A DNA stretch of 64,000 nt from Minisyncoccota bacterium. Its GTDB lineage: Bacteria; Patescibacteriota; Minisyncoccia; Phycocordibacterales; SBAW01. The translations under genes were made by a program, and so were the position numbers. Position 1 is the first letter of the stretch. Every line of letters begins with the position of its first letter. The DNA lies in assembly GCA_035546575.1 (NCBI GenBank), contig DASZWN010000001.1, positions 119,254-183,253 of the forward strand, in the 5' to 3' direction. The notes beneath the pieces were generated by a model. That model had not been told where the DNA came from and did not search any database. It worked only from the letters and a program-made list of their open reading frames with translations. This document shows positions 1,252 through 32,551 of this stretch, piece after piece.

Positions 1252-1275
1252 CCTACCTGCCGGTAGGCAGGTAGG
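1252..1275. repeat. Palindromic element copy 1 (cctacctgcc-ggta-ggcaggtagg), intergenic between nusA and the gspE-like gene
   Basis: 10-bp arms with a 4-nt centre. Same core as the copies at 2472, 14472 and 32532. Confidence 0.7.
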
Positions 1276-1293
1276 CATTGTATACTATGTGTA

Positions 1294-2973
1294 ATGCAGG
1301 TTGATGAAGGGCAGCTCAGGGACTTTCTTATTGACTCAGGTCTGATGACCCGGAGCCAAGTGGCCGATGCCACAAGGCACTCGCAAGAGGAAAGCCTGCC
1401 TCTTTATACAACGCTCTCGCAGGGCGGTTACCTTGCGGCCGACGAGCTGCGCCGCGCGCTTGCCCACGCCTCGGGGGTAGCGTTTGTGCAGCTTAAGCAT
1501 GACGACATCTCCGCCAATGCGCTTGTGCTTATACCCGAGCCGGTCGCCCGCACCTACAACATGGTTGCGTTTAAGCAAGACGGCAACATAGTTGAGGTTG
1601 CGATGCTCGACTTGGCCGACTTGTCGCGTATCGACTTTTTGCGCGAAAAGCACGGCCTTACCATTGTGCCGCGGCTCACGACTGCCGAGTCTATAAAGCG
1701 CGCGCTCCATATCTACCAGAAGCATCTTAAAGAAAAGTTTTCGGCGCTGTTGCAGCATGGCACTACTGCTGTCGATGCGCTCATCCACCACGCGATACTC
1801 TCGTATGCCTCGGGCGTGCATCTCGACTTACACGACACGAGCATGTTGGTGCGCTACCGCATACAAGGTGTGCTCCACGAGGCAATGCGCTTGCCTGCCG
1901 ATGCCGCCACGATGCTCGAGCGTCTTAAAGAGTTGGCAAAGTTATCGCTCACACTGCATGTACCGCAAGAAGGCAGCTTTAGAGTCGAGATGGAAGGTGG
2001 GGACCAGGTAGGCGTGCGCGTTGCAACAGCACCAACCGCAAACGGCGAGCGCATGGTGCTGCACTTGACCCCCGATCGTGTTAGCAGCACCGGCTTTACG
2101 CTCTCGTCGCTTGGGCTGCACGGGCAAGCGCTCGAGGAAGCGCATCACATGCTGCAAACACGCTCAGGCCTTATTGTTGTGGCAGGGCGCGCGGGTGCGG
2201 GTAAAACTACAACGCTCTACACACTGCTCGACAATCTCTCGCAGCGCGACGCTGCAATCGCCACTATCGAGAGCGAGATAGAGCATCGCTTCCCGCATAT
2301 TGCACAGACACAAGTACGCCCCGACATCGGCGTAACATACGCGTCTGGTTTGCGTGCGCTGCTTAAACAAGACCCGGACATGGTAATGGTGGGGGAACTG
2401 AATGACGAAAAGACCGCAGCGCTCGCCGCGGCCGCAGCTGCGCGCGGCGTGCTGGTGCTCGCAGGCGTTGACCTGCCTGCCGGTAGGCAGGGGCTCGCTG
2501 CTGCAGCAATAGAGGTGCTGCGCGGGTTTGGTATCTCCGACCATTTGCTCGCGTCAACCTTACGCGGGGTTATAGGCGTGGAAGTTGTACGCAAACTTTG
2601 TAAAGAAGAGCGCGAGGAATATAGGCTTTCGCGCGCCGAGGGCGAGCCCATGGAGGGGCGGGCCAACTTTGGCCACGTGCTAGCGCAGCTTAAAGAGGAG
2701 GGGATAGTCCACAAAGACCTACCCTGGAAGGAATTACTGTTTGCCCGGGCCGAGCCCTGCTCTAACTGCGAGGATGGTTATGTGGGCCAAGTTGGCCTGC
2801 AGGAGGTGCTCCCCATCACCGCTACTATTAAAGAGAAGCTTATGGCTGGGGCCTTGGCCGAGGATATCGAGGCCTTGGCTCGGGCAGACGGGATGACCAC
2901 TACTATAGAAGACGGGCTTTTTAAGGCTGCCCAAGGAATAACAAGCGTTGAGGAGGTAGTTCGGGTTGTCTAA
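1294..2973 (+). CDS. Type II secretion / type IV pilus assembly ATPase, GspE/PilB family
   Basis: N-terminal T2SSE_N/MshEN-like domain. Walker A GRAGAGKTTT. Walker B/Glu box DPDMVMVGELND. C-terminal Cys cluster CSNCEDGY. The His box and Asp box look degenerate. Palindrome copy 2 lies in-frame at 2472-2493 and encodes LPAGRQG. Confidence 0.8.
   Translation: MQVDEGQLRDFLIDSGLMTRSQVADATRHSQEESLPLYTTLSQGGYLAADELRRALAHASGVAFVQLKHDDISANALVLIPEPVARTYNMVAFKQDGNIVEVAMLDLADLSRIDFLREKHGLTIVPRLTTAESIKRALHIYQKHLKEKFSALLQHGTTAVDALIHHAILSYASGVHLDLHDTSMLVRYRIQGVLHEAMRLPADAATMLERLKELAKLSLTLHVPQEGSFRVEMEGGDQVGVRVATAPTANGERMVLHLTPDRVSSTGFTLSSLGLHGQALEEAHHMLQTRSGLIVVAGRAGAGKTTTLYTLLDNLSQRDAAIATIESEIEHRFPHIAQTQVRPDIGVTYASGLRALLKQDPDMVMVGELNDEKTAALAAAAAARGVLVLAGVDLPAGRQGLAAAAIEVLRGFGISDHLLASTLRGVIGVEVVRKLCKEEREEYRLSRAEGEPMEGRANFGHVLAQLKEEGIVHKDLPWKELLFARAEPCSNCEDGYVGQVGLQEVLPITATIKEKLMAGALAEDIEALARADGMTTTIEDGLFKAAQGITSVEEVVRVV
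2472..2493. repeat. Palindromic element copy 2 (cctgcctgcc-ggta-ggcagggg), inside the gspE-like CDS
   Basis: Same core as 1252, 14472 and 32532. In-frame, encoding DLPAGRQGL. Confidence 0.7.
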
Positions 2974-3054
2974 ACAGTAGATTTTAAAAAATCGCCCAAA
3001 TACCTATATTTTAGGCCACATTCTGGCTACTCGAGAAGTAACTTGACCACATAC

Positions 3055-3083
3055 TTGACAAATAGTCCAATAGGGTGTATACT
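3055..3083 (+). promoter_or_regulatory. Sigma70-like promoter, TTGACA-17-TATACT
   Basis: Near-consensus -35 TTGACA at 3055-3060, a 17-nt spacer, and -10 TATACT at 3078-3083. A second TTGACC lies at 3043. It sits in an AT-rich segment downstream of the gspE-like gene. Confidence 0.5.
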
Positions 3084-3111
3084 TATACCAGTTACGATCG
3101 ATTACATATTC

Positions 3112-3162
3112 TTGGGTAAGCAGCTTTTAGAGGAGGCGGCACACCATCATCACCATATATAG
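3112..3162 (+). CDS. Candidate leader peptide, 16 aa, M(TTG)GKQLLEEAAHHHHHI, with five consecutive His codons
   Basis: TTG start about 25 nt downstream of the predicted transcription start. The run CAC CAT CAT CAC CAT lies immediately before the stop. It is followed by a 9-bp perfect palindrome (3158-3176) and a terminator-like hairpin. Confidence 0.3.
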   Translation: MGKQLLEEAAHHHHHI

Positions 3163-3177
3163 ACTGTCTATATATAG

Positions 3178-3228
3178 AGGCGATTGGGGAGCATTTCTTC
3201 TAAAGGAATACTGCCCAATCGCCTTTTT
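3178..3228 (+). terminator. Terminator/attenuator-like hairpin: 11-bp stem (aggcgattggg/cccaatcgcct), 25-nt loop, then TTTTT
   Basis: Perfect 11-bp inverted repeat followed by a T-run on the plus strand. Lies downstream of the His-codon ORF. Confidence 0.45.
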
Positions 3229-3405
3229 CGTTAGGGCGGATCGTTAGCCTGGTCTCTGACAACAAAATAGCAATTAGGAATAAAGCAGAACAATAGTGGC
3301 AAAGCCACAACTGATGTTGTTCCTCGTTGCCGGACTGACTCACCTAGTCGGTACGGTACGAGGGATCGCTTCCGCGATACCCGATAGTTCAACAGGAGAG
3401 AAGTC

Positions 3406-3528
3406 ATGAAGATCATTCGTAAGGTCGGTAATTGGTGGATGAGCCTCAGTCTCGGCGAGGCTGCGATCATCTCGTTCGGTTCGGCTGTGGCGGCAATGGT
3501 TGCCATAGCAGCGATCGTCGCCAGCTAG
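3406..3528 (+). CDS. Small hydrophobic peptide, 40 aa: MKIIRKVGNWWMSLSLGEAAIISFGSAVAAMVAIAAIVAS
   Basis: Strong SD (caGGAGAgaagtcATG). Single predicted TM helix. The stop is followed at once by a 12-bp perfect hairpin at 3536-3565. Not in the ORF track because it is under 60 aa. The overlapping antisense ORF 3231..3506 has poor codon usage. Confidence 0.35.
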   Translation: MKIIRKVGNWWMSLSLGEAAIISFGSAVAAMVAIAAIVAS

Positions 3529-3647
3529 TTCGTTCGGTAACCTGCAATACGTTTTGCAGGTTACCGATCCATTCAAGTACTTGATTCGCTCGAGTATTTT
3601 AATGGGAGTAGATTATCGAAACCACCGAATGCGCGTCGGTATCGCGC

Positions 3648-3914
3648 ATGAGCCCGATGGAGGGCAAGATGTACAAAGTTCAAGTTGGGGTGTGCGGTTT
3701 GGTTCTTTTTGGTCTGCTCGGACTTGTGTTTGTGTACGGAGGGTTATTCGCATTCTTAATCGCGTTTATTGCGACGCTCGCATCTCATCGTATGGCCGTG
3801 GTTACGGCACATGAGGAGCTTGCAGAGCTGACCAAGACGCTGATTTCGCTAAGTGCGGAGAATTCCCGCTACTATCAGAAGTTCGGGGAACTGGAAGAAT
3901 CATCCGCCACCTAA
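3648..3914 (+). CDS. Hypothetical small membrane protein; likely start at the ATG at 3669 (MYKVQVGV...)
   Basis: ORF-track ORF. SD GGAGGG 4-5 nt before the ATG at 3669. One TM segment plus a charged C-terminus. An operator-like inverted repeat lies upstream. Confidence 0.4.
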   Translation: MSPMEGKMYKVQVGVCGLVLFGLLGLVFVYGGLFAFLIAFIATLASHRMAVVTAHEELAELTKTLISLSAENSRYYQKFGELEESSAT

Positions 3915-4049
3915 GCTCAGGGCGTCGTTGATGTAAACGTCTACGACGCCCATCCATTCAAGTACTCAAGATATTGAATATTTGAATGGGTCCATAGTGC
4001 GGCCCTGAACGCGAGCATTGTGCTCGCACAACGCTGAGGAGAAGTTAGA

Positions 4050-4352
4050 ATGGAAATGATGATCACGCGGGTGCACAATATGCCCGCTTTCCTGATCCCT
4101 GGGGCGTACGATCTTCTGCGGCCGGTTCCGGTCGAGGTCGTCCAGCAAGTGCGGCAGGAGCGTCAGCGTCCGGCCAAGCCGTTGGTGGTTCTGGCCAAGA
4201 AGCAGCCGCAGGTGCTGCTGCCTGCATCCATCACCACACCGACGCATTCGACGAAGTTCTACGAGCCCAAGAAGCTCGACTCCTGCATCGTCGTGGTCCG
4301 GCGCAAGGGTCGCGGGGTGCGTTCCCCGCGCGTGAAGTTCCGGGTCCACTAG
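4050..4352 (+). CDS. Hypothetical protein, 100 aa, basic C-terminus
   Basis: SD GAGGAG 8 nt upstream. Strong GC3 bias in this frame, about 62% GC, higher than the neighbouring genes. Operator-like inverted repeat upstream. Confidence 0.45.
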   Translation: MEMMITRVHNMPAFLIPGAYDLLRPVPVEVVQQVRQERQRPAKPLVVLAKKQPQVLLPASITTPTHSTKFYEPKKLDSCIVVVRRKGRGVRSPRVKFRVH

Positions 4353-4693
4353 TCCGAGTTCGGTGGCGATTGTAATGGCTCAAACCCATTACACTCGCCG
4401 CCCCTTTCAAGCATTTATCCGTCTCGATGCCGAGATGAGTGTTTGAAAGGGGAGGTTAGTATGTGCGTACTCCCCACAAGTTCTTCTCGCTGCGCTGGTT
4501 AACGCCCCGTGAGCCATGCGCGCGGTTGGCGCGGCGATCCCGACGAGTGTACTTCGTGCAGGGATCGCCGCCGCCTTCTTCTTTGTGGCAGTTTTTGGGC
4601 TATAAACGGATCCTCTACACTTCAGTCGACACAAATCCTGGGATTTGCATCGATTGGAGCGACCCGTTTGTAGCCCTAAGACTGTCATACCAA

Positions 4694-4718
4694 GCCCTGC
4701 CCAACGGCGGGGCTTTTT
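4694..4718 (+). terminator. Intrinsic terminator (gccctgcc-caac-ggcggggc + TTTTT)
   Basis: 8-bp GC-rich stem with one G-U pair, tetraloop, U5 tract. Ends the structured region 4353-4718 just upstream of tpiA. Confidence 0.7.
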
Positions 4719-4742
4719 CCTACCCAAAAATGGTATAGTTGC

Positions 4743-5504
4743 TTGGTGAAGAAACGCCTCGTTGTCGGTAACTGGAAGATGTATATCACCTCAGCCGACA
4801 CTGCGAGTGAGTTTGCACTAATGTTGCGTAAAAAAGCTCGAGGACTCTCGGGCGCTGAGGTACTTATTGCGCCGTCTTTTACGCTCATACCCGTAGTTGC
4901 TGATGTGCTTGCAAGCTCGAGCATTCGCGTAGGAGCACAAGCGCTCTCAAGCTATACCGACGAGAAACATACCGGCGATGTCTCGGGCGCGATGCTGCGC
5001 GCCGCTGGTGCTAGCTTTGTAATTGTCGGCCACTCTGAGCGCCGCGCTGCGGGCGACACCGATGCGCTTGTGCATGCGCAGCTTGAGAATGCGATATCCG
5101 CAAAGCTTATGCCGATTTTGTGCGTAGGCGAGCTTGAGCGCACGCATGAGGCCGACCATTTTTCTTTTGTTGAAGAGCAGCTCAATACGGCGCTTATGGG
5201 CATTCCCAAAAATTTACTGAAGAAACTGGTGGTCGCATATGAGCCCGTGTGGGCGATAGGAAAAAGTGCTGCAGATGCGATGAAGCCGAGCGATGTGCAG
5301 GAGATGACTATTTTTATACGCAAAATTCTAACAGAGATCCTCGATCGCAAGATGGCACAACGCACTCCAGTTTTGTACGGTGGTTCAGTCGAGCCGGACA
5401 ACGCACCGACGCTACTTAAAGAGGGAGATGTCTCCGGTTTTTTGGTCGGGCACGCTAGCACGAATGTCGACTCGTTTGTGTCTATACTAAAAGCCGTTCG
5501 TTAG
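4743..5504 (+). CDS. tpiA: Triosephosphate isomerase
   Basis: VGNWKM, GHSERR, AYEPVWAIG, YGGSV motifs. TTG start per the ORF track. Confidence 0.92.
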   Translation: MVKKRLVVGNWKMYITSADTASEFALMLRKKARGLSGAEVLIAPSFTLIPVVADVLASSSIRVGAQALSSYTDEKHTGDVSGAMLRAAGASFVIVGHSERRAAGDTDALVHAQLENAISAKLMPILCVGELERTHEADHFSFVEEQLNTALMGIPKNLLKKLVVAYEPVWAIGKSAADAMKPSDVQEMTIFIRKILTEILDRKMAQRTPVLYGGSVEPDNAPTLLKEGDVSGFLVGHASTNVDSFVSILKAVR

Positions 5505-5512
5505 AACCCGCA

Positions 5513-6481
5513 ATGATTAAACCAGTAGTAAGGTCAGTGAGAGATGCAGAGGTGAGCGGCAAGCGAGTGCTCGTGCGCGTCGACTTTAATGTGCCGATCA
5601 AGGACGGCAAGGTGGCGGAAGACATGCGCATTCGCGTGGCAATTCCAACGCTAGAACTCATTCACGAGCACGGAGCGTCGCAAATTGTATTGATCACACA
5701 TATTGGCCGGCCCGATGGAAAGGTTGTCGAAGAGTTACGCGTTGCTCCGGTTGCAGCACGTTTGCGTGAGCTAACCTCAATACCGTTTACCATGGAGGAA
5801 AATCTACGCTTTGACCCAGGCGACGAGGCCAACGACCCCGAGTTTGCAAAAAAGCTGGCAAGTCTCGGAGATATATTTGTAAACGACGCATTCTCGGTCT
5901 CGCATCGTGCGCATGCCTCCACGGTTGGCGTGGCGCAACTCCTGCCATCGTATGCGGGGCTTAATTTGGAAAAAGAGATCGAAAAACTCTCAGGCGCACT
6001 CACGCCGCCCCAAGGCGCGGTCGCGCTCATGGCCGTTACCAAAAAAGACAAGATCCCTCTTATCGACAAATTAGCGGGGCTCTACGCCAAGGTGCTTGTG
6101 GGCGGCCCTGTCCCGCCAGACTACGTGCCGAGCGCGCCAAACATCTTAATTCCAGCAGACGGCATCCCGGAGCTTACAGGCTTGCTTGATATTGGCCCTA
6201 ATACTCGCGAAGCATGGGTCGCATATGTGGCTCAGGCTCCGTTTGTGCTCTGGAACGGCCCTTTGGGTTGGTATGAAAAAGGGTACACGCAGAGTACCGA
6301 TGCTATTGCAAACCAGATCATCGCAAGCGGTACCGAGGCAGTGATAGGTGGAGGCGATACGGTTGCTGCACTTGAGAAGTTTCAATTCAACAGAGAAAAA
6401 GTTTTTATCTCCACGGGCGGAGGAGCAATGCTCGAGTTTTTGATAGCAGGCACCTTGCCCGGGATTGAGGTGCTAAAATAG
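5513..6481 (+). CDS. pgk: Phosphoglycerate kinase (compact, 322 aa)
   Basis: RVDFNVP, DAFSVSHRAH, WNGPLG, GGGDT, STGGGA motifs. Confidence 0.9.
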   Translation: MIKPVVRSVRDAEVSGKRVLVRVDFNVPIKDGKVAEDMRIRVAIPTLELIHEHGASQIVLITHIGRPDGKVVEELRVAPVAARLRELTSIPFTMEENLRFDPGDEANDPEFAKKLASLGDIFVNDAFSVSHRAHASTVGVAQLLPSYAGLNLEKEIEKLSGALTPPQGAVALMAVTKKDKIPLIDKLAGLYAKVLVGGPVPPDYVPSAPNILIPADGIPELTGLLDIGPNTREAWVAYVAQAPFVLWNGPLGWYEKGYTQSTDAIANQIIASGTEAVIGGGDTVAALEKFQFNREKVFISTGGGAMLEFLIAGTLPGIEVLK

Positions 6482-6487
6482 AAACAT

Positions 6488-6814
6488 ATGTACCCGAAGG
6501 GGACCGTAGTTGCGAGTGTTATTGCCGCATGTGTCTTGCTGCTTTTGCTCGCTGGAGCATTTTGGTATGGAATCCATGCGCCCCCAGCTCCAACCGCTAT
6601 TACAGAACCTGCTCAGGACATCATGCAAGCGGCAGAAAACAGAAAACAAGATTTGCTGCAACTTGCCGCTACGCTACAAACAGGTACCTCTTCCGAAACT
6701 GATGCAAAGCGCATGAGGGAGTTTGAGCATTTGCAGTCGCACGATACATCGGTCGCCAATACTGCCGCCGAAGAACAGCGCAGACAAGACCTCCTAAAAA
6801 TCGAAATTAAATAA
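6488..6814 (+). CDS. Hypothetical membrane-anchored protein
   Basis: N-terminal TM helix followed by a charged coil. Confidence 0.5.
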   Translation: MYPKGTVVASVIAACVLLLLLAGAFWYGIHAPPAPTAITEPAQDIMQAAENRKQDLLQLAATLQTGTSSETDAKRMREFEHLQSHDTSVANTAAEEQRRQDLLKIEIK

Positions 6815-6818
6815 AAGC

Positions 6819-7808
6819 ATGCATCGCTTATCACTCAAGCAAAAAACGATATTCTTGTGGGGCATTGAGTTGGCTATGGCTGTTGCTTTGGTGCTGGCAA
6901 TTACAGCTCCTCGTGCATACGTACCCAACGCTCATGCGCAGGCCGCAACTAACGCGGGTACTCTTACAGGATATGCATGGAGCGAGAACGTAGGCTGGCT
7001 CAGTTTCAGCGGCAGCAACTATGGCGTTACTGTTTCTCCGACCGATGGCAACACTCTCACAGGATATGCATGGAGCGAGAACGTAGGCTGGGTCAGTTTT
7101 ACGTCGAGCGATTTATCGGGTTGTCCCTCAGGCGCATGCTCCGCACGACTTACCGGCACAAAACCAAATGTCTCTTTGGCGGGTTGGGCGCGCGCATGCG
7201 CAAGTACCGACAGCGGCGCATGTAGTGGGGCACAACATGTCGGTGGGTGGGATGGATGGATAAGCCTAAGTGGCACCTCTCCCAACTATAGTCCGACGAT
7301 TTCAACATACGCACCTAAGCCGGGGGCTGGCGGGATATTGGAAGGCTATGCGTGGGGGAGTACCGTAATGGGATGGTTGCAATTTAACCCAGCCTTCGGG
7401 GGAGTAACCGTTGCACTCACCGCATGCAACGACGGACTCGACGAAGATGGTGACGGCAATCCTGACCTAACCGACCCAGATTGTGTCGATCTCACTACCG
7501 ACTCTGAGGGTTCTACAGCAGTTGGTGCAGTAGATATCAAAGTAAACGGGAGCGATAGCCTTTCGGTGCGCAGTGGTTCCAGTGTGTCTGTGACTTGGAC
7601 GAGCGCTCTAGTTGGAGGATGTACGCTGCAGTCGCCATCCGGCACAAACTCAGTTGCTGCCCAAAACACTACAGGTACTCCATTTACCATAGCTGCTATC
7701 ACCAAGTTTGCGCTCACATGTACTACGCTTGTCGGCGGTAATCCGACGGGCCCTGCAATAAGCGACTCGGTCACGGTGCGACTTATTCCGGTATACAAAG
7801 AAATTTAG
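6819..7808 (+). CDS. Secreted/surface repeat protein; two LTGYAWSENVGW(L/V)SF repeats, Cys-rich middle, shared C-terminal domain ending IPVYKEI
   Basis: Signal-anchor N-terminus. Tandem repeats. The C-terminal ~90 aa align with the C-terminus of 15723..19997 (..VTW..C.L....G....T.FT..CT......IPV[YF][KQ]EI). Confidence 0.7.
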   Translation: MHRLSLKQKTIFLWGIELAMAVALVLAITAPRAYVPNAHAQAATNAGTLTGYAWSENVGWLSFSGSNYGVTVSPTDGNTLTGYAWSENVGWVSFTSSDLSGCPSGACSARLTGTKPNVSLAGWARACASTDSGACSGAQHVGGWDGWISLSGTSPNYSPTISTYAPKPGAGGILEGYAWGSTVMGWLQFNPAFGGVTVALTACNDGLDEDGDGNPDLTDPDCVDLTTDSEGSTAVGAVDIKVNGSDSLSVRSGSSVSVTWTSALVGGCTLQSPSGTNSVAAQNTTGTPFTIAAITKFALTCTTLVGGNPTGPAISDSVTVRLIPVYKEI

Positions 7809-7826
7809 CCCTATAATTGTAAGCAT

Positions 7827-8888
7827 ATGCAAAGTGTCAAAACAAAAGTAGCTGAGCTGACCCGCTTCGCCAAGGCGTTCCTTTTAGCGGCACTGGTGCT
7901 GCTTGCCGCAGGTGCCTATGCCTGGACTGCGCCAACGCAAGCGCCACCTGCTGGCAACGTACAACCGCCTATCAACGCAGGCGGCTCATATCAAACAATC
8001 GGGATTCTTGCCAACGGCACGACTACCGCCATTACCGGCGGTCTCTTATCGAGCGATGTGTTTGTGGTGGGCTCACCTACACCAAGCTCTGCGCCGCATG
8101 GCTCTATTTGTCTTTCCGGGTCGTGCATTACGAGCTGGAATCAGGCGGCTGGAGGCACCGACTATCAAGTTTTTACGTCGAGCGGTACTTGGACAAAGCC
8201 TGCCGATACGAGCGCATCGTCGCGTACGCTTATCGAGTGCTGGGGCGCAGGCGGGGGAGGCAGCAATAACGGAGGCGGGGGAGGCGGTGCATACGATGCC
8301 GTATGGTCCCTTACCTCTTCACTTAGCTCGACCATTGCGGTAACCGTAGCTACAGCGCCGGCTACGTCGGTGGCGGGGGGCGACTCCTCTTTCGGTTCGC
8401 TCGTTATTGCCAAGGGGGGAGGCGCCGGCGGCGCTGGCGGAGGCGGAGGAGGCGGAGGATACAGCGCAACGGGGAGTAACGGCACTTCTGCTGGGGGAGA
8501 CGGCGGTAATCCGAAGGGTAGTTGGATCTACCCGGGGGTAATTCCTTACTGTCGAGGAGGTACAAGCAGCAAGGGGGCCACCGGCGGTTCCGCATGCGGC
8601 GGAGGTGGCGGCAACGCCAATACGGAAGGCTACGATAAGGGCGGTTATTCCGTCACCGGAGGGGGCGGCGGTGCCGGTAATCACAATGATTCCAACCCTG
8701 CTAACGGTGGCGACTCTGTGTATGGCGGCGGCGGCGGGTCGGCAGGATCTTCCGGGGGTACTGGCGGCCAAAGCATGTTCGGCGGCAATGGCGGGGCTAC
8801 GGGCAGTGCCGGAATTGCCCCCGGCGGCGGCGGCGGGCGCAACGCGCAAGGTGCTCGCGGTGAGTGCCGCGTGACTACGTTTAAATAA
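7827..8888 (+). CDS. Secreted glycine-rich protein carrying a TWTKP...LIECWGAGGGG module
   Basis: Signal anchor. The module FTSSGTWTKPAD...TLIECWGAGGGGSNNGGGGGGAY recurs at residues ~1000-1050 of 15723..19997. Long Gly/Ser/Thr/Asn-rich tail. Confidence 0.7.
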   Translation: MQSVKTKVAELTRFAKAFLLAALVLLAAGAYAWTAPTQAPPAGNVQPPINAGGSYQTIGILANGTTTAITGGLLSSDVFVVGSPTPSSAPHGSICLSGSCITSWNQAAGGTDYQVFTSSGTWTKPADTSASSRTLIECWGAGGGGSNNGGGGGGAYDAVWSLTSSLSSTIAVTVATAPATSVAGGDSSFGSLVIAKGGGAGGAGGGGGGGGYSATGSNGTSAGGDGGNPKGSWIYPGVIPYCRGGTSSKGATGGSACGGGGGNANTEGYDKGGYSVTGGGGGAGNHNDSNPANGGDSVYGGGGGSAGSSGGTGGQSMFGGNGGATGSAGIAPGGGGGRNAQGARGECRVTTFK

Positions 8889-8890
8889 TT

Positions 8891-11344: not shown

Positions 11345-12676
11345 GTGAAATATTGGAGCATCTTTGGCCTCCTGGTGTTTGCATACGCGGCGCTTTTATT
11401 TGCTCGCGTTGTTTTTACGCTCAATGCCGAGGCTGCGGAGACTTTGCCTCTGTACGACGGACACACGGGTGCAGTGGTGGGGAGGGTAGTTAACGACCCT
11501 GACCGACGCGCTACTTCGCTCCATGTACATGTGAGGGTGGCGACAGTTGATGGCGAGCCCGCACGCGGTACGCTGCTTGCGCTTTTGCCGCCACAAGCAG
11601 AAGTTTCGTACGGCGACACCGTTGAGGTGTCGGGGACAATCAAAACACCAGAGCCGTTTGAGACCGACACGGGCCGCGAGTTTAACTACGCAGGCTATCT
11701 GCGCGTGCAAGGGGTCTCAATGATGATGCAAAAAGCTACGCTACAAAATGTAGAAGAGGGAGGACTATCTTTGCAAAAAACTCTTTTTAGCATCAAACAC
11801 ACGTTTGAACACTCGCTCGAGAAATTATTCCCCGAGCCGGACAACTCGCTGCTTGAGGGGATTCTGCTCGGCGAGCGCTCGGGGCTCCCGAAAGATGTAC
11901 AGAATGCGTTTATCGCATCGAGCTTGGTGCACGTGGTGGTGCTCTCCGGCTACAATATATCGATTGTTGCCAACGCGGTGCTCTACGCCACCTCGGGTTT
12001 GCCGCGCACATTCTCCTACGGCTTTGGCGGAATGCTCATGATCTTGTTTGCCATGATGACTGGTGCAGGTGCCACTACGGTGCGTGCATGCGCCATGGGA
12101 GTTATCTCTATTGTTGCGCAGTACATGCACCGGCCAACGGTCGCGATGCGCAGCCTTATCGCAGCGGCGGGTGCGATGATACTCTGGAACCCGCTTATTG
12201 TGCTCTACGACTCCTCTTTTATATTGAGTGTGCTCGCGACATTTGGACTCGTGACACTGTCACCGACGACCGAGCGGTGGGTAAGGTGGATCCCAGAGAA
12301 GTTTGGCCTACGGTCAATTGCCGCAGCAACAATCGCAGTGCAACTGTTTGTGCTGCCAGCACTTTTGTATTTTACCGGCGTACTTTCTGTTGTTGCACTG
12401 CCTGCAAATTTACTCGCGCTCCCTGTTGTGTCTTGGGCAATGTTGTTTGGTTTTATTGCGGGGCTTCTTGGATTTGTACATCCTGCACTCGCACTACCGT
12501 TCGCGATCCTCGGTGACGCGCTCCTTAGGTGGATGATGCTTGTAGCAAACACAGCAACCGCGTTCCCGTTCTCCTCGACAGTAGTGGCGGCTTTTCCTGC
12601 TTGGATACTTATAGCGATGTATATTCCGCTAACGACTATTGCCACTAAGATTTACCTTACACAAAGTAACTCATAA
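11345..12676 (+). CDS. comEC: ComEC/Rec2 DNA internalisation channel, N-terminal DUF4131-like plus competence domain only (no MBL domain)
   Basis: LLGERSGLPKDVQNAFIASSLVHVVVLSGYNISIV core and multiple TM segments. The protein ends before an MBL domain. Confidence 0.8.
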   Translation: MKYWSIFGLLVFAYAALLFARVVFTLNAEAAETLPLYDGHTGAVVGRVVNDPDRRATSLHVHVRVATVDGEPARGTLLALLPPQAEVSYGDTVEVSGTIKTPEPFETDTGREFNYAGYLRVQGVSMMMQKATLQNVEEGGLSLQKTLFSIKHTFEHSLEKLFPEPDNSLLEGILLGERSGLPKDVQNAFIASSLVHVVVLSGYNISIVANAVLYATSGLPRTFSYGFGGMLMILFAMMTGAGATTVRACAMGVISIVAQYMHRPTVAMRSLIAAAGAMILWNPLIVLYDSSFILSVLATFGLVTLSPTTERWVRWIPEKFGLRSIAAATIAVQLFVLPALLYFTGVLSVVALPANLLALPVVSWAMLFGFIAGLLGFVHPALALPFAILGDALLRWMMLVANTATAFPFSSTVVAAFPAWILIAMYIPLTTIATKIYLTQSNS

Positions 12677-12739: not shown

Positions 12740-13333
12740 CTACTTTGTCACGGCTTCAAACCGCTTCTCGATAACAGACCAATTAAGATTTTTGAAAAAC
12801 GCGTCTATATATTTGCCGCGGCCGGTGGCACCTTGGTCAAGTATGTATGCGTGCTCCCACACGTCGATGGCAAGCATAATAGGGAGCGTCACAAAGTGGC
12901 CCTGATGCTGCTCGCCCGAGAAGCCAGCAATAAATTGTTTTGTCTCAGGGTCCCAGTACAAAATCGCCCAACCCGGCCCGCGTGTTGACGCGATGCTCTT
13001 GAGATACGGCTCAATGTGCGCAGCCTTCATATAATCTTTTGTGAGCGCTGCCTCGAATGCACCGCCGCTTGTAATCGGCGTAGCGCCACCCTCGAGCTGC
13101 TCAAAGTAATACTCGTGCAAGCGCATACCGTCCCACTCAAACGCGCGGCGGCGGAATATCTCGGCGAGCGCGTGGGCGTTCTTCTCGGCCTCCTTGGCGT
13201 ACTCCGGCATCAAGGCCGACATCGCATTAAAGTTTTTTACATAGCCTGCATAGAGGGCGAGGTGCTGGTCTATAGATTCCTTAGAGATACCCTCTAGAGC
13301 GGGGATAGTAAACTGTTTTTCTTGGTATTGCAT
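12740..13333 (-). CDS. sodA: Fe/Mn superoxide dismutase
   Basis: DVWEHAYILD metal-binding motif and N-terminal FTIPALEG. The ORF-track GTG start at 13366 is also possible. Confidence 0.85.
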   Translation of the reverse strand: MQYQEKQFTIPALEGISKESIDQHLALYAGYVKNFNAMSALMPEYAKEAEKNAHALAEIFRRRAFEWDGMRLHEYYFEQLEGGATPITSGGAFEAALTKDYMKAAHIEPYLKSIASTRGPGWAILYWDPETKQFIAGFSGEQHQGHFVTLPIMLAIDVWEHAYILDQGATGRGKYIDAFFKNLNWSVIEKRFEAVTK

Positions 13334-13471
13334 GTGTTCAGTAAAACATCTTAATTCTAAAGACACCCTAAAGATATCCCCATAAGGGTTGCAAAAAGTA
13401 CTATTTGTGGCATAGTTCTGTGTAGTTAGTCCTTAGCCGCAATCTGCGGCGTTTCAAAACGGGGGAACCCA

Positions 13472-13837: not shown

Positions 13838-14743
13838 ATGTATACTTTGCGCATGCAGTTTTTGCGCCGATACTTTTCTTACCTTATCCTTGCTGCTCTG
13901 GTTTTAATTTCAATCGGCATCTGGTCAGTTGTTTGGGCCGAGACTGCGCCCGGCAAACTCATTGTTGCGGTGCTCGACGTCGGCCAAGGCGACTCCATTT
14001 TTATAGAGTCTCCAACCGGAGTGCAGATTATTATCGATGGCGGCCCCGACAACTCTCTTTTGCACGACCTGCCGCATGTGATGCCGCTCTCTGACCGCTC
14101 TATCGACGCGGTGCTCGCAACGCACCTCGACGCTGACCACATCACCGGCTTTATTGACCTGCTCAAGCGCTACTCAGTTGGCGCGTTTATTGAATCAGGT
14201 TTAGTTAAGAGTACACTCACTGCGCGCACATTAGAAAAAGAAGTTGATGCGGAAAAAATCCCCCGCACGATCGCACGCCGGGGCATGTCGCTTGACCTCG
14301 GCGGGGGAGCGTATCTTGATGTCTTGTCTCCTGACTACGATGTCTCCATCTTGCCAGAGGACAAAGGCAACGAGGGGTGCATTGTCGCACATTTGGTCTA
14401 CGGCAAAACCTCGATGCTTTTAATGTGCGACGCATCTATGGATGTTGAGGATCATATTATGGCACTTGGGAGCCTGCCTACCGGACAGGCAGGCACAACG
14501 CAGATCAAAAGCGATATTTTAAAAGTCGGACACCATGGTTCGCACTCTTCGACGGGAGATGAATTTGTGAGCGAGGTTGACCCGTCGGTTGCCATTATCT
14601 CGGTTGGCGCACACAACACGTACGGTCACCCGGCTGAGCAGACACTCGACACCCTCGCAGCTCATAATGTAGAAACCCTCCGTACAGACGAGGAGGGGAC
14701 TATCAAGTTTATTTCGAACGGGGAGAAGTTTGTGAGGGATTAG
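13838..14743 (+). CDS. ComEC C-terminal metallo-beta-lactamase domain protein, encoded as a separate gene
   Basis: VLDVGQGDS, THLDADHITG, VGHHGSHSS, NTYGHP motifs and an N-terminal TM. Palindrome copy 3 lies in-frame at 14472-14494 and encodes LPTGQAGT. Confidence 0.8.
   Translation: MYTLRMQFLRRYFSYLILAALVLISIGIWSVVWAETAPGKLIVAVLDVGQGDSIFIESPTGVQIIIDGGPDNSLLHDLPHVMPLSDRSIDAVLATHLDADHITGFIDLLKRYSVGAFIESGLVKSTLTARTLEKEVDAEKIPRTIARRGMSLDLGGGAYLDVLSPDYDVSILPEDKGNEGCIVAHLVYGKTSMLLMCDASMDVEDHIMALGSLPTGQAGTTQIKSDILKVGHHGSHSSTGDEFVSEVDPSVAIISVGAHNTYGHPAEQTLDTLAAHNVETLRTDEEGTIKFISNGEKFVRD
14472..14494. repeat. Palindromic element copy 3 (gcctgcct-accggac-aggcaggc), inside the comEC-MBL CDS
   Basis: Same CCTGCC...GGCAGG core as 1252, 2472 and 32532. 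Confidence 0.6.
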
Positions 14744-25868: not shown

Positions 25869-25930
25869 AGCCTACTACTTATCCCCACCCGCCTCTTGCG
25901 GGGAATAGGGAAGATACTAGAATGAAGACA

Positions 25931-25975: not shown

Positions 25976-25982
25976 TAGTTTT

Positions 25983-26771: not shown

Positions 26772-26847
26772 CAACTTGCGTATCCTCTTAGGAGTGATTG
26801 AATAGGGGAAGAAGATAACTTGTGTGTAACATGCAGGAGAATGATCA

Positions 26848-27285: not shown

Positions 27286-27290
27286 ACTTT

Positions 27291-27316
27291 AACCGCCGGC
27301 CCACAAAGCCGGCGGT
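27291..27316 (+). terminator. Intrinsic terminator (aaccgccggc-cacaaa-gccggcggtt)
   Basis: 10-bp perfect stem. Confidence 0.6.
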
Positions 27317-27342
27317 TGACTCTTTTTCGTGCTCTGCTACTA
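27315..27342 (+). promoter_or_regulatory. Promoter TTGACT-16-TACTAT upstream of tuf
   Basis: -35 TTGACTCTTTT and -10 TACTAT. The same TTGACTCTTTT -35 element also occurs at 33570 and 34674. Confidence 0.55.
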
Positions 27343-27412
27343 TGGCCCTAACGCAATAGGGCGGGCTTTCCTTTGCTTGTAATTAAAAGTTATTAATTAG
27401 GGTTTCTTATAT

Positions 27413-28606: not shown

Positions 28607-28629
28607 TCCAAATAAGATTTGAAAAGAAA

Positions 28630-28653
28630 AACCCGGTTTACGCCGGGTTTTTC
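28630..28653 (+). terminator. Intrinsic terminator after tuf (aacccgg-tttacg-ccgggtt + TTTTT)
   Basis: 7-bp stem plus U-tract. Confidence 0.7.
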
Positions 28654-28746
28654 TTATGCTATTGTCTACCTGTTCTCATTATCACTGTAAGCGTTAGCTA
28701 ATAGGGTATAGGTTACGGCATCGCCGAGAACTACGCCCAAACAATT

Positions 28747-29124
28747 ATGGCAACCGAACCAGCAGCAGAAAAGAAGGCAGCTCCTAAGCGCACTCGCAAA
28801 ACAGCCGCTCCGGCTGCAGTGCAGCGCCTTCGCATTAAGGTCCGTGCATACGAGCACAAAGTGCTCGACGCATCGGTAAAGCAGATCATGGAGACAGCGT
28901 TGCGTTACGACGCAAAGATCGCTGGCCCTATCCCGCTTCCGACCGAGATCAAAAAGTATACGGTCAACCGCTCAACCTTCGTCTACAAAGACGCTCGCGA
29001 GCAGTTTGAGATGCGCGTGCACAAGCGCCTCATCGACATCCTCGACCCGTCCCCGAAGGTGATTGAGGCTCTCACGAACCTCTCCCTCCCGTCTGGAGTC
29101 ACTATTGATGTAAAAATGGCGTAG
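28747..29124 (+). CDS. rpsJ: 30S ribosomal protein S10 (with N-terminal extension)
   Basis: [13 protein letters not shown]...GPIPLPT...[18 protein letters not shown]. Confidence 0.9.
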
Positions 29125-29232
29125 CGTAGCTACTGACATTTTTACAAATCAAAAAGAATGGCATTACAGAAAATCCCCGAAAGGGGATTTTCTGTGCTAC
29201 GTTGTAGGCAGGATAGGCAAAGGAGAAGTTCG

Positions 29233-29436
29233 ATGACATCAAAAAAGAGGGGAACGAAATTCGAAGATCAGCGCACGCGGCCTTCGGTACTCGACAAAAA
29301 GATAAGGCAGCCGGCAATTGTCGGCTCCAAACTCCCGAGACCTTCGGTGCGCGGGCGAAAGACTGCCAACAGCACTCTTTCTCCGGGAGGGCAGTTCGAA
29401 CGTCATATCAACTGGGTAAATTCCCACTTCAGGTAA
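29233..29436 (+). CDS. Candidate small basic protein, 67 aa, with an internal RPSV repeat. May instead be part of a structured RNA
   Basis: SD AAAGGAG 7 nt before the ATG. Heavy AGG/AGA codon use, atypical for this genome. Lies inside a highly structured spacer. Confidence 0.25.
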   Translation: MTSKKRGTKFEDQRTRPSVLDKKIRQPAIVGSKLPRPSVRGRKTANSTLSPGGQFERHINWVNSHFR

Positions 29437-29448
29437 TCCCTGAACTTC

Positions 29449-29480
29449 CTAAGCCTCGGCATTTGTCCCGAGGCTAATTT
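29449..29480 (+). terminator. Intrinsic terminator (gcctcgg-catttgtc-ccgaggc + TAATTTTTT)
   Basis: 7-bp stem plus T-run. Confidence 0.6.
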
Positions 29481-29772
29481 TTTGTAACCTTTTTGTTTCT
29501 ACTCAGTTTTTATAAGTGGATAGAGTAGTCTGACAGTGGAGGCCTGTGAGGGGAAACCCTCGGACGCTCACATACGAGCTCACACATTCCTTTTGAGCCT
29601 CTGTATTTTTTACACGCTCTCCCACTCCATCTTCGTTCTTTCTTCCCCCACCCGCCTCATCATTTTTGATGAGGCATATTTCTTGCTACACTCAGGTTGT
29701 CCGGTGCCAGAAGGTATTGAGGAGGGGCGCAAGCTCTGAATCAGAGCTCTGGCAAACGACGGCCGTAACTAT

Positions 29773-29820
29773 AACGGCCCTAGGGGGTGGAGGCGTCAAA
29801 ACCTCCACCCCTGCCTTTTT
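29773..29820 (+). terminator. Terminator-like hairpin (ggggtggagg/cctccacccc 10-bp stem, then TGCCTTTTTC)
   Basis: Perfect 10-bp stem followed by a T-run, inside the rpsJ-rplC spacer. Confidence 0.5.
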
Positions 29821-29927
29821 CTTGCATAATTTTAAACCTTAGGTTATAGTCTTCTGGACTCTCGACCCGCGCCCTTGGCGGGGTAAACATAGGGTTGTCC
29901 ACGTCCCCTCGGGGACCAATAGAAACC

Positions 29928-30551
29928 ATGAAATTCATCCTTGGAACAAAGGGCAAAATGACGACTGTATACACCGAAGAGGGTCAGGCCTTTGCCGCGA
30001 CCGTTATTACTGCTACTCCGGGTGTAGTTACACAGATCAAAACAGCCGAGAAGGAGGGTTACAACGCCGTCCAGATCGGTGGTATCGACGGCAACGTAAA
30101 GCACACCAACAAAGCGCAGCGGGGCCACGCAAAGGGCAAATTCTTTAAGCATTTCCGTGAGCTTCGCGCACGCGACGGCAAACTGCCGGAGGGTGTCGAG
30201 GTAGGTGCCACAATCGACCTTTCTGCGTTTGCAGTTGGCGACAAGGTGCAAGTGTCTGCAATCTCAAAGGGCAAAGGCTTTGCCGGCGTTGTTAAGCGCT
30301 ACAACTTTAAGGGCGGTCCACGTTCCCATGGCCAGAAGCACAGCGAGCGTGCACCGGGTTCTATCGGCGGCTCTGGCGGTCGCGCAGGCGGTCGCGTTGC
30401 TAAGGGTATGCGCATGGCAGGCCGCATGGGCCAAGACCGCGTAACCGTGCGCAACCTCGCAATACTCCAGGTGCTTCCAGAGACAAACGAGCTCGTTATT
30501 GCAGGTGCAATCCCGGGCCGCGCAGGTACGCTTGTTGAGATACGCGGCTAG
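29928..30551 (+). CDS. rplC: 50S ribosomal protein L3
   Basis: MKFILGTKGKMTTVYTEEG...; start chosen at the conserved N-terminus rather than the longer ORF-track start at 29895. Confidence 0.9.
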   Translation: MKFILGTKGKMTTVYTEEGQAFAATVITATPGVVTQIKTAEKEGYNAVQIGGIDGNVKHTNKAQRGHAKGKFFKHFRELRARDGKLPEGVEVGATIDLSAFAVGDKVQVSAISKGKGFAGVVKRYNFKGGPRSHGQKHSERAPGSIGGSGGRAGGRVAKGMRMAGRMGQDRVTVRNLAILQVLPETNELVIAGAIPGRAGTLVEIRG

Positions 30552-30556
30552 ATAAT

Positions 30557-31354
30557 TTGAATACCACTATGGAAACTACTATCTACAACAAACAAGGCAA
30601 AGAATCAGGAAAGATCACGCTTCCTGAAAACATTTTTGGCCTGCCGTGGAATGCAGACCTGGTACACCTGGTTGTAACTGCAATGCGCGCAAATGCTCGC
30701 GGCAATGTCGCACACACCAAAGACCGCGGCGAGGTTCGCGGAGGCGGGCGCAAGCCATGGGCCCAAAAAGGGACTGGCCGCGCTCGCCATGGCTCAAGCC
30801 GCTCACCAATCTGGAAGGGCGGCGGTGTGACCCACGGTCCTCGCAACGAGAAGATCTTTGGCCTCAAGGCAAACCGTCAGGCTCGCCAGAAGGCGCTTTT
30901 GGTTGCGCTCTCTCGCAAATTTAAAGACGGCGAGGTGCTCTTTATCGACTCGCTCGAGATGGAGACACCTAAGACAGCAGCAGCAAAGGTGATGCTCTCA
31001 GCGCTCGGTAAAAACTTCTCCGGTCTCAGCAAAACCAAGAATGCAGCACTCATTGCTATCCCTGCTGCTCACGCTGCAACACAAAAGAGCTTCCAGAACT
31101 TTGGCAATATCGAGGTGGCCGAGGTGCGTAATCTCAACCCGCTGTCGGTGCTCTCGAGCAAATACGTTATCTTTGCAAACCCAGAGGCTGCATTTGAGAC
31201 GCTTAGTGCCAAGAAGGTTGTAAAAAGCACTACGGGCGAAAAGAAGGTTAAGAAGGCAAAGGTGGTGGCCGAGGAAGCAGCGCCTGCACCAAAGGCAGTT
31301 AAAAAGGCACCGGCCAAAAAGGCAATAAAAAAGGTAGCTGCACCGGCAAAATAA
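30557..31354 (+). CDS. rplD: 50S ribosomal protein L4 (with Lys/Ala-rich C-terminal extension)
   Basis: L4 family core. C-terminal KKAKVVAEEAAPAPKAVKK tail. Confidence 0.9.
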   Translation: MNTTMETTIYNKQGKESGKITLPENIFGLPWNADLVHLVVTAMRANARGNVAHTKDRGEVRGGGRKPWAQKGTGRARHGSSRSPIWKGGGVTHGPRNEKIFGLKANRQARQKALLVALSRKFKDGEVLFIDSLEMETPKTAAAKVMLSALGKNFSGLSKTKNAALIAIPAAHAATQKSFQNFGNIEVAEVRNLNPLSVLSSKYVIFANPEAAFETLSAKKVVKSTTGEKKVKKAKVVAEEAAPAPKAVKKAPAKKAIKKVAAPAK

Positions 31355-31355
31355 T

Positions 31356-31643
31356 ATGAACAAGCCTCACTCAAAAATTCTCCTTTCTCCTCGCATTACC
31401 GAAAAGGGCGCGTACCTCGCCGAGGGCAGCGTATATGTCTTTAACGTCGCGATGGATGCAAACAAAAAGCAGATTGCCGATGCGGTACGCGATACCTTTA
31501 AGGTGACGCCTCGCTATGTGCGCATTGCGGCAGTGCCACGCAAGGTGGTGATGACTCGCGGCACTAACCGCAAGGGCAAGACTACTGCGGGCAAGAAGGC
31601 ATACGTATTCCTCAAGAAAGGAGAGACCATTGAGCTGGTCTAA
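31356..31643 (+). CDS. rplW: 50S ribosomal protein L23
   Basis: L23 family sequence. Confidence 0.9.
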   Translation: MNKPHSKILLSPRITEKGAYLAEGSVYVFNVAMDANKKQIADAVRDTFKVTPRYVRIAAVPRKVVMTRGTNRKGKTTAGKKAYVFLKKGETIELV

Positions 31644-31674
31644 ATTTATTTAGACCCAATCAAAAAGAAATCTT

Positions 31675-32523
31675 ATGAAACACTATCGACCATACACAAA
31701 ATCACGCCGTGGTATGACCACCATTACCTTCAAGGGTAAGCTCACGACCAATGAGCCGCACAAAGCTCTTGTACACGGCGGCAAACGCGATATGGGCCGC
31801 AATAATGCGGGCCGCATTTCGGTGCGCCACAAGGGCGGTGGACACAAGCGCATGTTCCGCGATGTGGACTTTTTCTACAACAAGCAGGTTCCGGCTCGCG
31901 TAGAGACTGTCGAGTACGATCCGAACCGCTCCGGCTTTATCGGCGTGCTTGCATATCGCGACGGCGAGCGCCGCTACGCACTCCTTCCGCAGTCGGTTAA
32001 AGTTGGCGACACTGTCGAGACTTCTGCTACCGCGCCTGCAACTCCAGGTAACCGCATGCCACTCAAGAATGTTCCGATCGGCGCGTTTGTCTACAACGTT
32101 GAGATTAAGCCGGGCAACGGTGCCAAGCTTGGCCGCGCTGCAGGTACGCACATCGAGGTTATCGCACGCGACGGCGGCTATGTAGACCTTAAGATGCCAT
32201 CGAGCGAGGTCCGTAAAGTCCTCGAGACCTGCTGGGCAACGCTCGGCGAGGTTTCAAACCCAGAGAACAAACTCATGAACATTGGTAAGGCAGGTCGCAG
32301 CCGCTGGCTCGGTATCCGCCCAACCGTGCGCGGTACTGCAATGAACCCGGTTGATCACCCATACGGCGGAGGCGAAGGCCGCCAAGGCCGCGGTACTCGC
32401 CGCGCCAAGTCTATGTGGGGCAAGCCGACAGGCAAGGGCCAGAAGTCTCGCCGCCCAAAGAAGTACTCCAACTACTTGATAGTTAGTCGAAGAAAGGTTG
32501 GTAAAAGAGGCGCGCAGCAATAA
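31675..32523 (+). CDS. rplB: 50S ribosomal protein L2
   Basis: GGGHKR..., GTAMNPVDHPYGGGEG motifs. Confidence 0.95.
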   Translation: MKHYRPYTKSRRGMTTITFKGKLTTNEPHKALVHGGKRDMGRNNAGRISVRHKGGGHKRMFRDVDFFYNKQVPARVETVEYDPNRSGFIGVLAYRDGERRYALLPQSVKVGDTVETSATAPATPGNRMPLKNVPIGAFVYNVEIKPGNGAKLGRAAGTHIEVIARDGGYVDLKMPSSEVRKVLETCWATLGEVSNPENKLMNIGKAGRSRWLGIRPTVRGTAMNPVDHPYGGGEGRQGRGTRRAKSMWGKPTGKGQKSRRPKKYSNYLIVSRRKVGKRGAQQ

Positions 32524-32531
32524 GTAGGCAA

Positions 32532-32551
32532 CCTGCCTGCCGGCAGGCAGG
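32532..32551. repeat. Palindromic element copy 4, a perfect 20-bp palindrome cctgcctgccggcaggcagg, intergenic just after rplB
   Basis: Perfect palindrome sharing its core with 1252, 2472 and 14472. Confidence 0.75.

Follow-up and report, generated by a model that had tools for sequence, protein, structure and literature searches.

A 20-nt palindromic element inserted in a Paceibacterota genome and its association with a GIY-YIG nuclease cassette at tRNA-Leu genes

The window analysed here, a 64-kb stretch of contig DASZWN010000001.1, belongs to a metagenome-assembled genome (MAG) of Paceibacterota, a lineage of the candidate phyla radiation (CPR); the closest named RplB to that of the window is from Adlerbacteria. 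It contains four copies of a 20-nt palindromic element, CCTRCCTGCCGGYAGGCAGG, hereafter P, and all four are located where a sequence-only reading of this DNA had placed them (Table 1). P consists of CCTG followed by a 6-bp stem (CCTGCC/GGCAGG) that encloses the loop GGYA; the form with C in the loop is a perfect palindrome, and the T form is found in four of the five copies of the source genome. Across its variants the element can be generalized as CCTG, stem CCTRYC, loop GGYA and stem GRYAGG. The minus strand of copy 1 reads CCTG-CCTACC-GGCA-GGTAGG, a stem-compensated variant (CCTACC/GGTAGG), and this copy lies in an extended 24-nt palindrome (1252-1275, cctacctgccggtaggcaggtagg) that precedes the pilB ATG by 19 nt. 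The minus strand of copy 3 reads CCTGCCTG-T-CCGGTAGGCAGG, that is, P with one additional base. A contig of this organism that extends beyond the right-hand end of the window (L259) has the fifth copy at 6260-6279, about 2.4 kb outside the window. This copy lies in recG and encodes LPAGRQ between helicase motifs I and Ia, in a segment 15 residues longer than in Thermotoga RecG.

Table 1. Copies of P, their host or neighbouring genes, and the tmRNA gene of the 64-kb window
Feature	Coordinates	Strand	Remarks
P copy 1	1252..1271	-	CCTACCTGCCGGTAGGCAGG; 22 nt 5′ of the pilB ATG (1294)
P copy 2	2472..2491	+	CCTGCCTGCCGGTAGGCAGG; within pilB; encodes LPAGRQ(G)
P copy 3	14473..14493	-	21 nt; within the MBL-domain gene; encodes LPTGQAG
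P copy 4	32532..32551	.	Perfect palindrome CCTGCCTGCCGGCAGGCAGG; 9 nt 3′ of the rplB stop (32523)
pilB, PilB/GspE-like ATPase	1294..2973	+	Pfam T2SSE 1.3e-70, MshEN 5.3e-12; hosts copy 2, downstream of copy 1
Metallo-beta-lactamase (MBL) domain gene, ComEC C-terminal type	13838..14743	+	Pfam Lactamase_B 5.9e-13; hosts copy 3
rplB	31675..32523	+	Translation, homologues named 50S ribosomal protein L2; immediately 5′ of copy 4
tmRNA gene	58306-58678	-	Rfam 81.4 bits; ARAGORN tag peptide AKSVSSPYFSVNDLSLATARA

A scan of both strands of the window for the 16-mer core of P, allowing up to three mismatches, gave 13 matches, which represent the four P loci and a weak one at 4696. Dinucleotide shuffles of the window gave 0.91 ± 1.11 matches and none of 100 reached 13, as had been anticipated in the claim that the recurrence of the palindrome exceeds chance. 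The word CCTGCCTGCC occurs twice, where Markov models predict 0.05-0.09 occurrences. An Rfam scan of the window gave no match at the P copies. The pilB copy is also present in an independently built Logan contig that is identical over 3,500 of 3,500 nt.

Syntenic contigs of two related lineages, whose PilB proteins are 81% and 78% identical to that of the window, were used for comparison, together with two further loci (L175 and L176) for the rplB region. At copy 1 the relatives L126 and L127 read GTTCGTCAA/TAGGCGTTG, and the window has exactly the 20 nt of CCTACCTGCCGGTAGGCAGG at the position of the slash, with no target-site duplication relative to these two contigs; the TAGG at 1272-1275 that completes the 24-nt palindrome is already present in the relatives. 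At copy 3, L122 and L123 read GGAAG/CACTACT, where the window has a clean insert of 21 nt (7 aa), and the MBL protein is 301 aa in length as opposed to 294 aa for the L122 orthologue. At copy 2 the closest PilB orthologues (81% and 78% identity) lack 5 aa, reading IE-AS-TAAG versus VD-LPAGRQGL-AAAA in the window, and the DNA alignment shows a net gain of 15 nt. Removal of the 20-mer from pilB leaves GTTGA/GGCTC-GCTGCT, which aligns with L126 GTGGAAGCTGCTTCCGCTGCA given a 5-nt loss four bases downstream; from this by-eye alignment we infer that P was inserted in the codon GA/G and that 5 nt were lost (20 in, 5 out). Other PilB orthologues have insertions in this segment too, several of them unrelated to P. 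At copy 4 there is no P in L175 and L176 between the rplB stop and a conserved terminator-like hairpin (AAAAGGCGCC..GGCGCCTTTT), where the spacer is so short and diverged that the insertion boundaries are not resolvable. No P-like sequence was found in the 20-kb syntenic stretches of the relatives (L122-L127), and over the first 24 kb, wherever coding sequence could be aligned, every clean indel of at least 15 nt is due to P.

Judged by these empty sites, all four window copies are recent insertions and not ancestral sequence, and P would have entered its present positions after the lineage split from relatives that are about 80% identical in protein. This agrees with one suggestion of the sequence-only reading, a small mobile palindromic repeat of the REP or MITE type (repetitive extragenic palindromic sequence or miniature inverted-repeat transposable element) that is able to sit in genes; the PAGRQG and PTGQAG segments that it had singled out are both insertions, absent from the related orthologues. 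Its further proposal, that insertion in frame is a property of the element, did not survive, because the unit is 20 nt long and the coding copies are in frame only through an extra base (MBL) or a nearby 5-nt loss (pilB).

P was found in at least 120 genome loci of more than ten phyla, with unrelated flanks, in an exact scan for CCTRCCTGCCGGYAGGCAGG that covered one genome per species. About four occurrences are expected, by an arithmetic estimate, for a random 20-mer of the same degeneracy. Among the matches listed, the carriers are Bacteroidota, Patescibacteria, Omnitrophota, Planctomycetota, Bdellovibrionota, Nitrospirota, Desulfobacterota, Chloroflexota, Ignavibacteria and others, and most carrier genomes show one or two exact copies. 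Isolate genomes with P include those of Winogradskyella, Olivibacter, Flagellimonas, Longitalea and Flavivirga. Within the IMG/VR viral contigs P is present in 47 stretches, while two palindromic 20-mers of the same base composition gave 0 and 0 matches in this collection, a result that rules out convergent GC-rich terminator stems. Outside the source genome P also lies within genes for FtsK, TrpRS, ribosomal protein S6, RfbB, glycosyltransferases and a histidine kinase; the LPAGRQ frame is used by nine of ten such coding copies, or 12 of 13 when the three of the source genome are included.

Target-site duplications of at least 2 nt flank 7.8% of 179 P copies versus 10.1% of control positions, and none is therefore evident. 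Position -1 is A or G in 76% of the same 179 copies. Flanking stems of at least 6 bp surround 8.9% of copies as against 2.0% of control positions, and the predicted single-stranded fold of the copy 4 site without P places the insertion point on the 3′ border of a hairpin loop, immediately ahead of a GCGCG strand of the stem. Nested copies with P in the centre of P (CCTGCCTGCCG-P-GYAGGCAGG) occur at several loci, the inner and outer elements being of the same C or T form; together with the T form shared by four of the five source-genome copies, this speaks for self-propagation of P.

Two further arrangements were seen in the collected loci. One 29.5-kb viral contig (L154, L163, L165) carries six copies of P, several of which centre larger repeated imperfect palindromes, CCCACCCTCG-P-CAGAAAACGCGAGGATGGGG and the inverse; this suggests composite repeats built around P. 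Further short hairpin words rich in GC are repeatedly found next to P in viral contigs and in unrelated phyla, namely CCCTCTCC-N4-GGAGAGGG followed by GGGGTGAGG (L019, L079, L101, L152, L153), TCCGCCAGCTGGCGGA (L016, L025) and CCCGCGAAAGCGGG (L019, L036). In L101 a histidine kinase gene contains the CCCTCTCC-N4-GGAGAGGG word followed by P. It is possible that P belongs to a wider set of mini-hairpins that occur across phyla.

Small open reading frames (ORFs) for GIY-YIG proteins, directly 3′ of P, were first seen in loci with several copies of the element. Among the loci selected by the P pattern, an exact P is found no more than 150 nt from seven of nine GIY-YIG ORFs, and an eighth ORF is accompanied by a degenerate copy. 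For the converse test a profile of five GIY-YIG proteins was used to collect 80 metagenome loci, selected by protein similarity alone. P, with up to two substitutions, is present in 58 of these, 43 times within 120 nt before the ATG and 18 times within 150 nt after the stop; the gap between P and the ATG has a median of 25 nt and a range of 11-65. A same-strand tRNA gene lies within 150 nt in 59 of the 80 loci, and in 54 of them it is a tRNA-Leu gene. In the commonest layout a truncated 5′ tRNA copy is followed by the GIY-YIG gene (about 80 aa) and then by the intact tRNA, with P breaking the D-arm of the truncated copy (GGTAGA-P-CGCGC or GGCGGAA-P-TTGGTAGA). In the second layout the GIY-YIG gene follows the tRNA and precedes a truncated 3′ tRNA copy with the hairpin in its T-arm; in L057 the truncated 3′ copy has P within extra DNA in the T-arm. 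The units also occur in tandem arrays, and at one locus (L093, 2751-4895) a module of P and GIY-YIG is placed in frame between the halves of a type I hsdS gene, giving an ORF of 714 aa. The GIY-YIG unit is organized like a homing-endonuclease gene cassette, with a selfish endonuclease ORF at a conserved target gene and a patchy presence, no cassette having been found in the relatives of the window. Compared with the cassette hairpin, one window copy of P is identical (20/20), one agrees at 19/20 positions, the stem-compensated double variant at 18/20, and one at 19/20 with an additional base inserted.

The proteins belong to Pfam GIY-YIG (PF01541; 1e-15), and the catalytic residues Y, Y-x-G, R, H and E are invariant among those in the profile. 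The nearest solved structures are those of two UPF0213 proteins (function not known) and of SLX1, a structure-specific endonuclease. The protein collection contains over 7,200 clusters of the subfamily, for which there is no NCBIfam model; the taxa named as its sources correspond to those in which P occurs and include Paceibacterota (P0346). Clustering of the roughly 4,000 ORFs within 2 kb of P at about 165 loci revealed no Y1/RAYT-like family, a direct Pfam scan of all neighbours not having been made; it gave the GIY-YIG proteins, ParB-like proteins whose genes do not adjoin P, and proteins encoded by related phage contigs.

P interrupts tRNA genes or fragments also in Patescibacteria and viral contigs (L024, L130, L158, L169). 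In L024 (4000-4225) the 5′ part of a tRNA with P is followed by a whole tRNA-Met and then by the 3′ part of the first tRNA; in L158 P lies cleanly within the variable loop of a tRNA-Met-like sequence; and in L169 the tRNA downstream of the cassette runs on into an apparent intron. Removal of P did not restore a tRNA in L024 and L055, because these are truncated tRNA copies.

The hairpin itself varies. In the variant CCTGCCTGTCGGCAGACAGG (or its reverse complement), CCTGTC-GGCA-GACAGG, a C:G pair of the stem is replaced by T:A, and this variant occurs in two clades of the GIY-YIG protein tree only. It is itself dispersed, being present in 23 viral stretches, often with several copies per contig. 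The double variant CCTACC..GGTAGG accounts for four of 128 genome copies, while the A change alone was not encountered (Fisher p about 0.018 by our own arithmetic). Such changes show a hairpin that is under selection, its stem being kept by compensatory change, and that covaries with the protein clade.

We consider it probable (roughly 0.6) that the window copies of P are solitary, non-autonomous 20-nt hairpin elements of a GIY-YIG selfish cassette. Sequence comparison shows block insertion without target-site duplication, a close physical linkage of P to this GIY-YIG family, and P as a conserved, structured cis element of the cassette family. As in a non-autonomous derivative, the window copies have the same cis sequence as the cassette, no coding capacity, and presence or absence at orthologous sites. 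P would fold as a DNA hairpin or cruciform, and a structure-specific GIY-YIG nuclease might recognise the extruded hairpin, which would then be copied or moved in trans to breaks or nicks elsewhere. Insertion would often be imprecise, with a few bases gained or lost, and in genes only those copies should survive in which the length change is a multiple of three and the peptide is tolerated (LPAGRQ, in a surface loop). The copies in pilB, in the ComEC-type MBL gene and in recG are passengers, not functional motifs.

Several observations weigh against this explanation. GIY-YIG enzymes are hydrolytic nucleases for which we know of no strand-transfer activity, so that the pasting step is without a known enzyme. 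Neither the 64-kb window nor the adjoining 7 kb contains a GIY-YIG gene of the family. In the pattern-selected loci 207 of 214 P copies (about 97%) have no GIY-YIG gene within 150 nt, and mobilisation in trans is accordingly inferred, not seen. Twenty-two of the 80 protein-selected cassettes lack P, and in L057 (860-1300) a different, 34-nt hairpin (CCCGCCCGTACCGAACGGGTACGTTCGGGCGGGG) occupies the same place in the D-loop beside a decayed GIY-YIG gene. The predicted folds of three of the four window sites are unconvincing, and insertion into hairpin loops was rejected as a general rule since the enrichment of flanking stems is modest. The locus counts and the taxonomic breadth of P are those of a sample.

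As a tentative proposal, to which we give less than even odds, P and its variants might represent a new class of DNA transposon, in which a bare 20-nt hairpin is cut and pasted, or copied, at nicks or hairpin loops. The work would be done by a minimal, structure-specific SLX1-like GIY-YIG nuclease together with host ligation or repair, with no known transposase superfamily and no target-site duplication. The tRNA-Leu cassette would then be the autonomous form, and its horizontal spread would explain why P is shared by more than ten phyla and by viruses.

It is unlikely that P never moves alone and that its solitary copies are comparable to solo long terminal repeats, left when a P-GIY-YIG-P cassette inserts and recombination or slippage between its two identical 20-mers deletes the gene. 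In some cassettes (L183, L186, L192, L216, L222) P does flank the gene, lying 5′ of the ATG and again 3′ of the stop; a deletion of this kind would be expected to leave one P, without target duplication or any other scar; and the hsdS module of L093 indicates that P with GIY-YIG can enter a protein gene. In most of the cases with two copies, however, the second P belongs to the next tandem unit or to a tRNA fragment, and no cassette remnants or tRNA fragments are found beside the five copies of the source genome. Two rare events would be required for each copy, and three for a copy in a gene, and the nested and abutting copies are explained more simply by direct insertion.

We regard with still greater doubt the idea that P is an independent parasite, moved by another enzyme, that gathers in the dead tRNA fragment as a neutral, structured landing site. 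Its position in the D-arm does vary (after GGTAGA, GGCGAA, GGCGGAA or GGTATA), and the cassettes without P, the other hairpin at the same spot in L057 and the GC-rich hairpin words that recur beside P in unrelated phyla would all fit such a parasite. It would not be expected, on the other hand, that the variant hairpin follows the GIY-YIG protein clades, that the distance between P and the ATG is narrow, or that P precedes the GIY-YIG module outside the tRNA context too, as in L093; nor did the ORFs within 2 kb of P yield any recurrent nuclease or transposase family other than GIY-YIG.

A host function is very improbable. P could in principle be an operator, a DNA-uptake sequence, a restriction-modification target or a recombination hotspot of competence and pilus genes: copy 1 lies just 5′ of pilB, the three coding copies are in DNA-handling genes (pilB, the ComEC-type MBL gene, recG), and CCGG is found in every copy. 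Uptake sequences are spaced at about one per kb in Neisseria and Haemophilus, and the five copies of P in about 71 kb fall far below this density. P is absent from the same sites in relatives that retain the genes, and more than ten phyla, as well as viral contigs, have the identical sequence in unrelated genes. The sequence-only reading's link to DNA uptake or pili fails, given the range of other genes that P occupies, recG included, and its alternative of an uptake sequence or restriction target is contradicted by the density, the empty sites and the spread across phyla and viruses.

Chance, convergent terminator hairpins or an assembly or sequencing artefact have a negligible probability: palindromes are common as terminators and most carriers are MAGs, but the shuffle statistics, the control palindromes, the reading frames kept through compensating indels, the identical Logan contig and the occurrence of P in isolate genomes all speak to the contrary. 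The empty sites, the cross-phylum spread and the controls together contradict the operator, uptake, restriction-target and chance or artefact explanations.

Among known systems P works most like the REP/REPIN elements and their REP-associated tyrosine transposases (RAYT), yet it fails the defining features of that family. The likeness lies in short GC-rich hairpin palindromes, many solitary copies per nuclease gene, a gene flanked by the palindrome, a palindrome variant that covaries with the protein clade, and the lack of coding capacity with mobilisation in trans presumed. In Proteobacteria, however, the partner of REP/REPIN is the RAYT, a Y1 HUH transposase of the IS200/IS605 type, whereas that of P is a GIY-YIG protein of the SLX1/UPF0213 type. 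REP/REPIN sequences are imperfect palindromes of 20-40 nt with GTAG at the 5′ foot; P is shorter, a perfect or near-perfect palindrome of 20 nt that has GTAG in the loop of the T form only. The former are extragenic, species-specific and present in hundreds per genome, while P is intragenic in three of five cases here, is low in copy number (among the matches listed) and is shared across phyla. The cassette of P is moreover tied to tRNA-Leu genes, unlike REP/REPIN-RAYT.

Rickettsia palindromic elements (RPE; Ogata et al. 2000) are reportedly selfish palindromes that lie in frame in genes, in surface-exposed segments of a host protein that is apparently functional. P resembles them in being palindromic and in frame in coding genes. 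RPE are about 100-150 bp in length, confined to Rickettsia and without a known cognate gene, whereas the 20-nt P occurs across phyla, is paired with a GIY-YIG gene as its cognate and owes its in-frame status to compensating indels. The GC clusters, double-hairpin and ultra-short elements of fungal mitochondria are GC-rich hairpins that are polymorphic for presence or absence in intergenic DNA and occasionally lie in frame in genes; no mechanism is known for them, and endonuclease genes of the GIY-YIG and LAGLIDADG types are found in the same genomes. They are like P in size and behaviour and differ in sequence and host. Several yeast GC clusters have short target duplications, which P lacks, and we know of no specific nuclease gene tied to the fungal elements, while P has one such family as its partner.

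Free-standing GIY-YIG homing endonuclease genes are known from phages (I-TevI and the Seg type). The cassette shares with homing genes a small selfish GIY-YIG gene in or beside a conserved target (here tRNA-Leu), patchy occupancy and tandem re-invasion. Unlike I-TevI and the Seg-type enzymes, its protein is a minimal catalytic domain of about 80 aa with no DNA-binding extension, nearest to SLX1/UPF0213, and the cassette includes a partial duplicate of the tRNA together with a conserved hairpin. This hairpin also spreads alone, which classical homing systems are not known to do. MITEs such as the Correia elements of Neisseria are likewise non-autonomous, small and dispersed, and sometimes co-transcribed or within genes; they have terminal inverted repeats round an internal segment, cause target duplication and derive from insertion sequences by deletion, while P is a single 20-nt hairpin without duplication. 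DNA uptake sequences and uptake signal sequences are species-specific and conserved at orthologous sites, and P differs from them on these points as it does in density.

The window has some further features apart from P. Near copy 2 (2430-2520) the PilB-like ATPases of this clade have GVEAP or GIEAS in place of the canonical His-box STLHTN (P0042, P0054). ComEC is split, the MBL-domain gene being separate from a gene with the DUF4131 and Competence domains (11345..12676), and a Fe/Mn superoxide dismutase gene (12740..13366, minus strand) is located between the halves; L126 and L127 have neither ComEC part at that place, which is occupied by a peptidase S41 gene. Three genes (108, 329 and 353 aa) between pgk and a HIT-family gene (6488-8888) are absent from the syntenic L122 and L127, where pgk directly precedes HIT and recJ. 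The S10 operon is broken between rplB and rpsS by about 2.2 kb (32524-34772), with P copy 4 at the left edge. This block contains a terminator-like hairpin (about 32588-32610), two ORFs (33017..33238, plus strand; 33285..33524, minus strand) and purC (33642..34616); the same place in L175 is only about 860 nt in length, with one small minus-strand ORF. In the same operon the spacer between rpsJ (28747..29124) and rplC (29895..30551) is unusually long (about 770 nt) and includes a stretch of 111 nt (29694-29804, plus strand) that matches positions 1856-2001 of bacterial large-subunit (LSU) rRNA (Rfam RF02541; 58.8 bits, E 7e-15). The stretch may be a mimic of rRNA or a stray piece of it, and was not detected at the gathering threshold in L175 and L176. 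No tRNA genes were found in the 64-kb window.

We found no description of the pairing of P with GIY-YIG, nor of the sequence of P, in the full-text literature searched, which mostly does not extend to subscription journals. A 2006 survey of the GIY-YIG superfamily (PMC1564403) mentions neither the palindrome nor the tRNA-Leu context. There is a real chance that the mechanism of mobilisation is new.

If the explanation favoured here is true, P and the cassette would constitute a second, mechanistically unrelated relationship of the REP-RAYT type, in which a GIY-YIG nuclease replaces the Y1 transposase and the hosts are Bacteroidota, Patescibacteria, Omnitrophota, Planctomycetota and others. It would also provide the first functional lead for thousands of stand-alone bacterial GIY-YIG proteins of the SLX1/UPF0213 type. 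P accounts for recurrent peptides of the LPAGRQ type and for small insertions in conserved proteins of uncultured bacteria, and is a cheap marker of recent insertions for strain-level population genetics in metagenomes. Streamlined CPR genomes, on this evidence, tolerate active selfish DNA in conserved and likely essential genes (TrpRS, ribosomal protein S6, FtsK).

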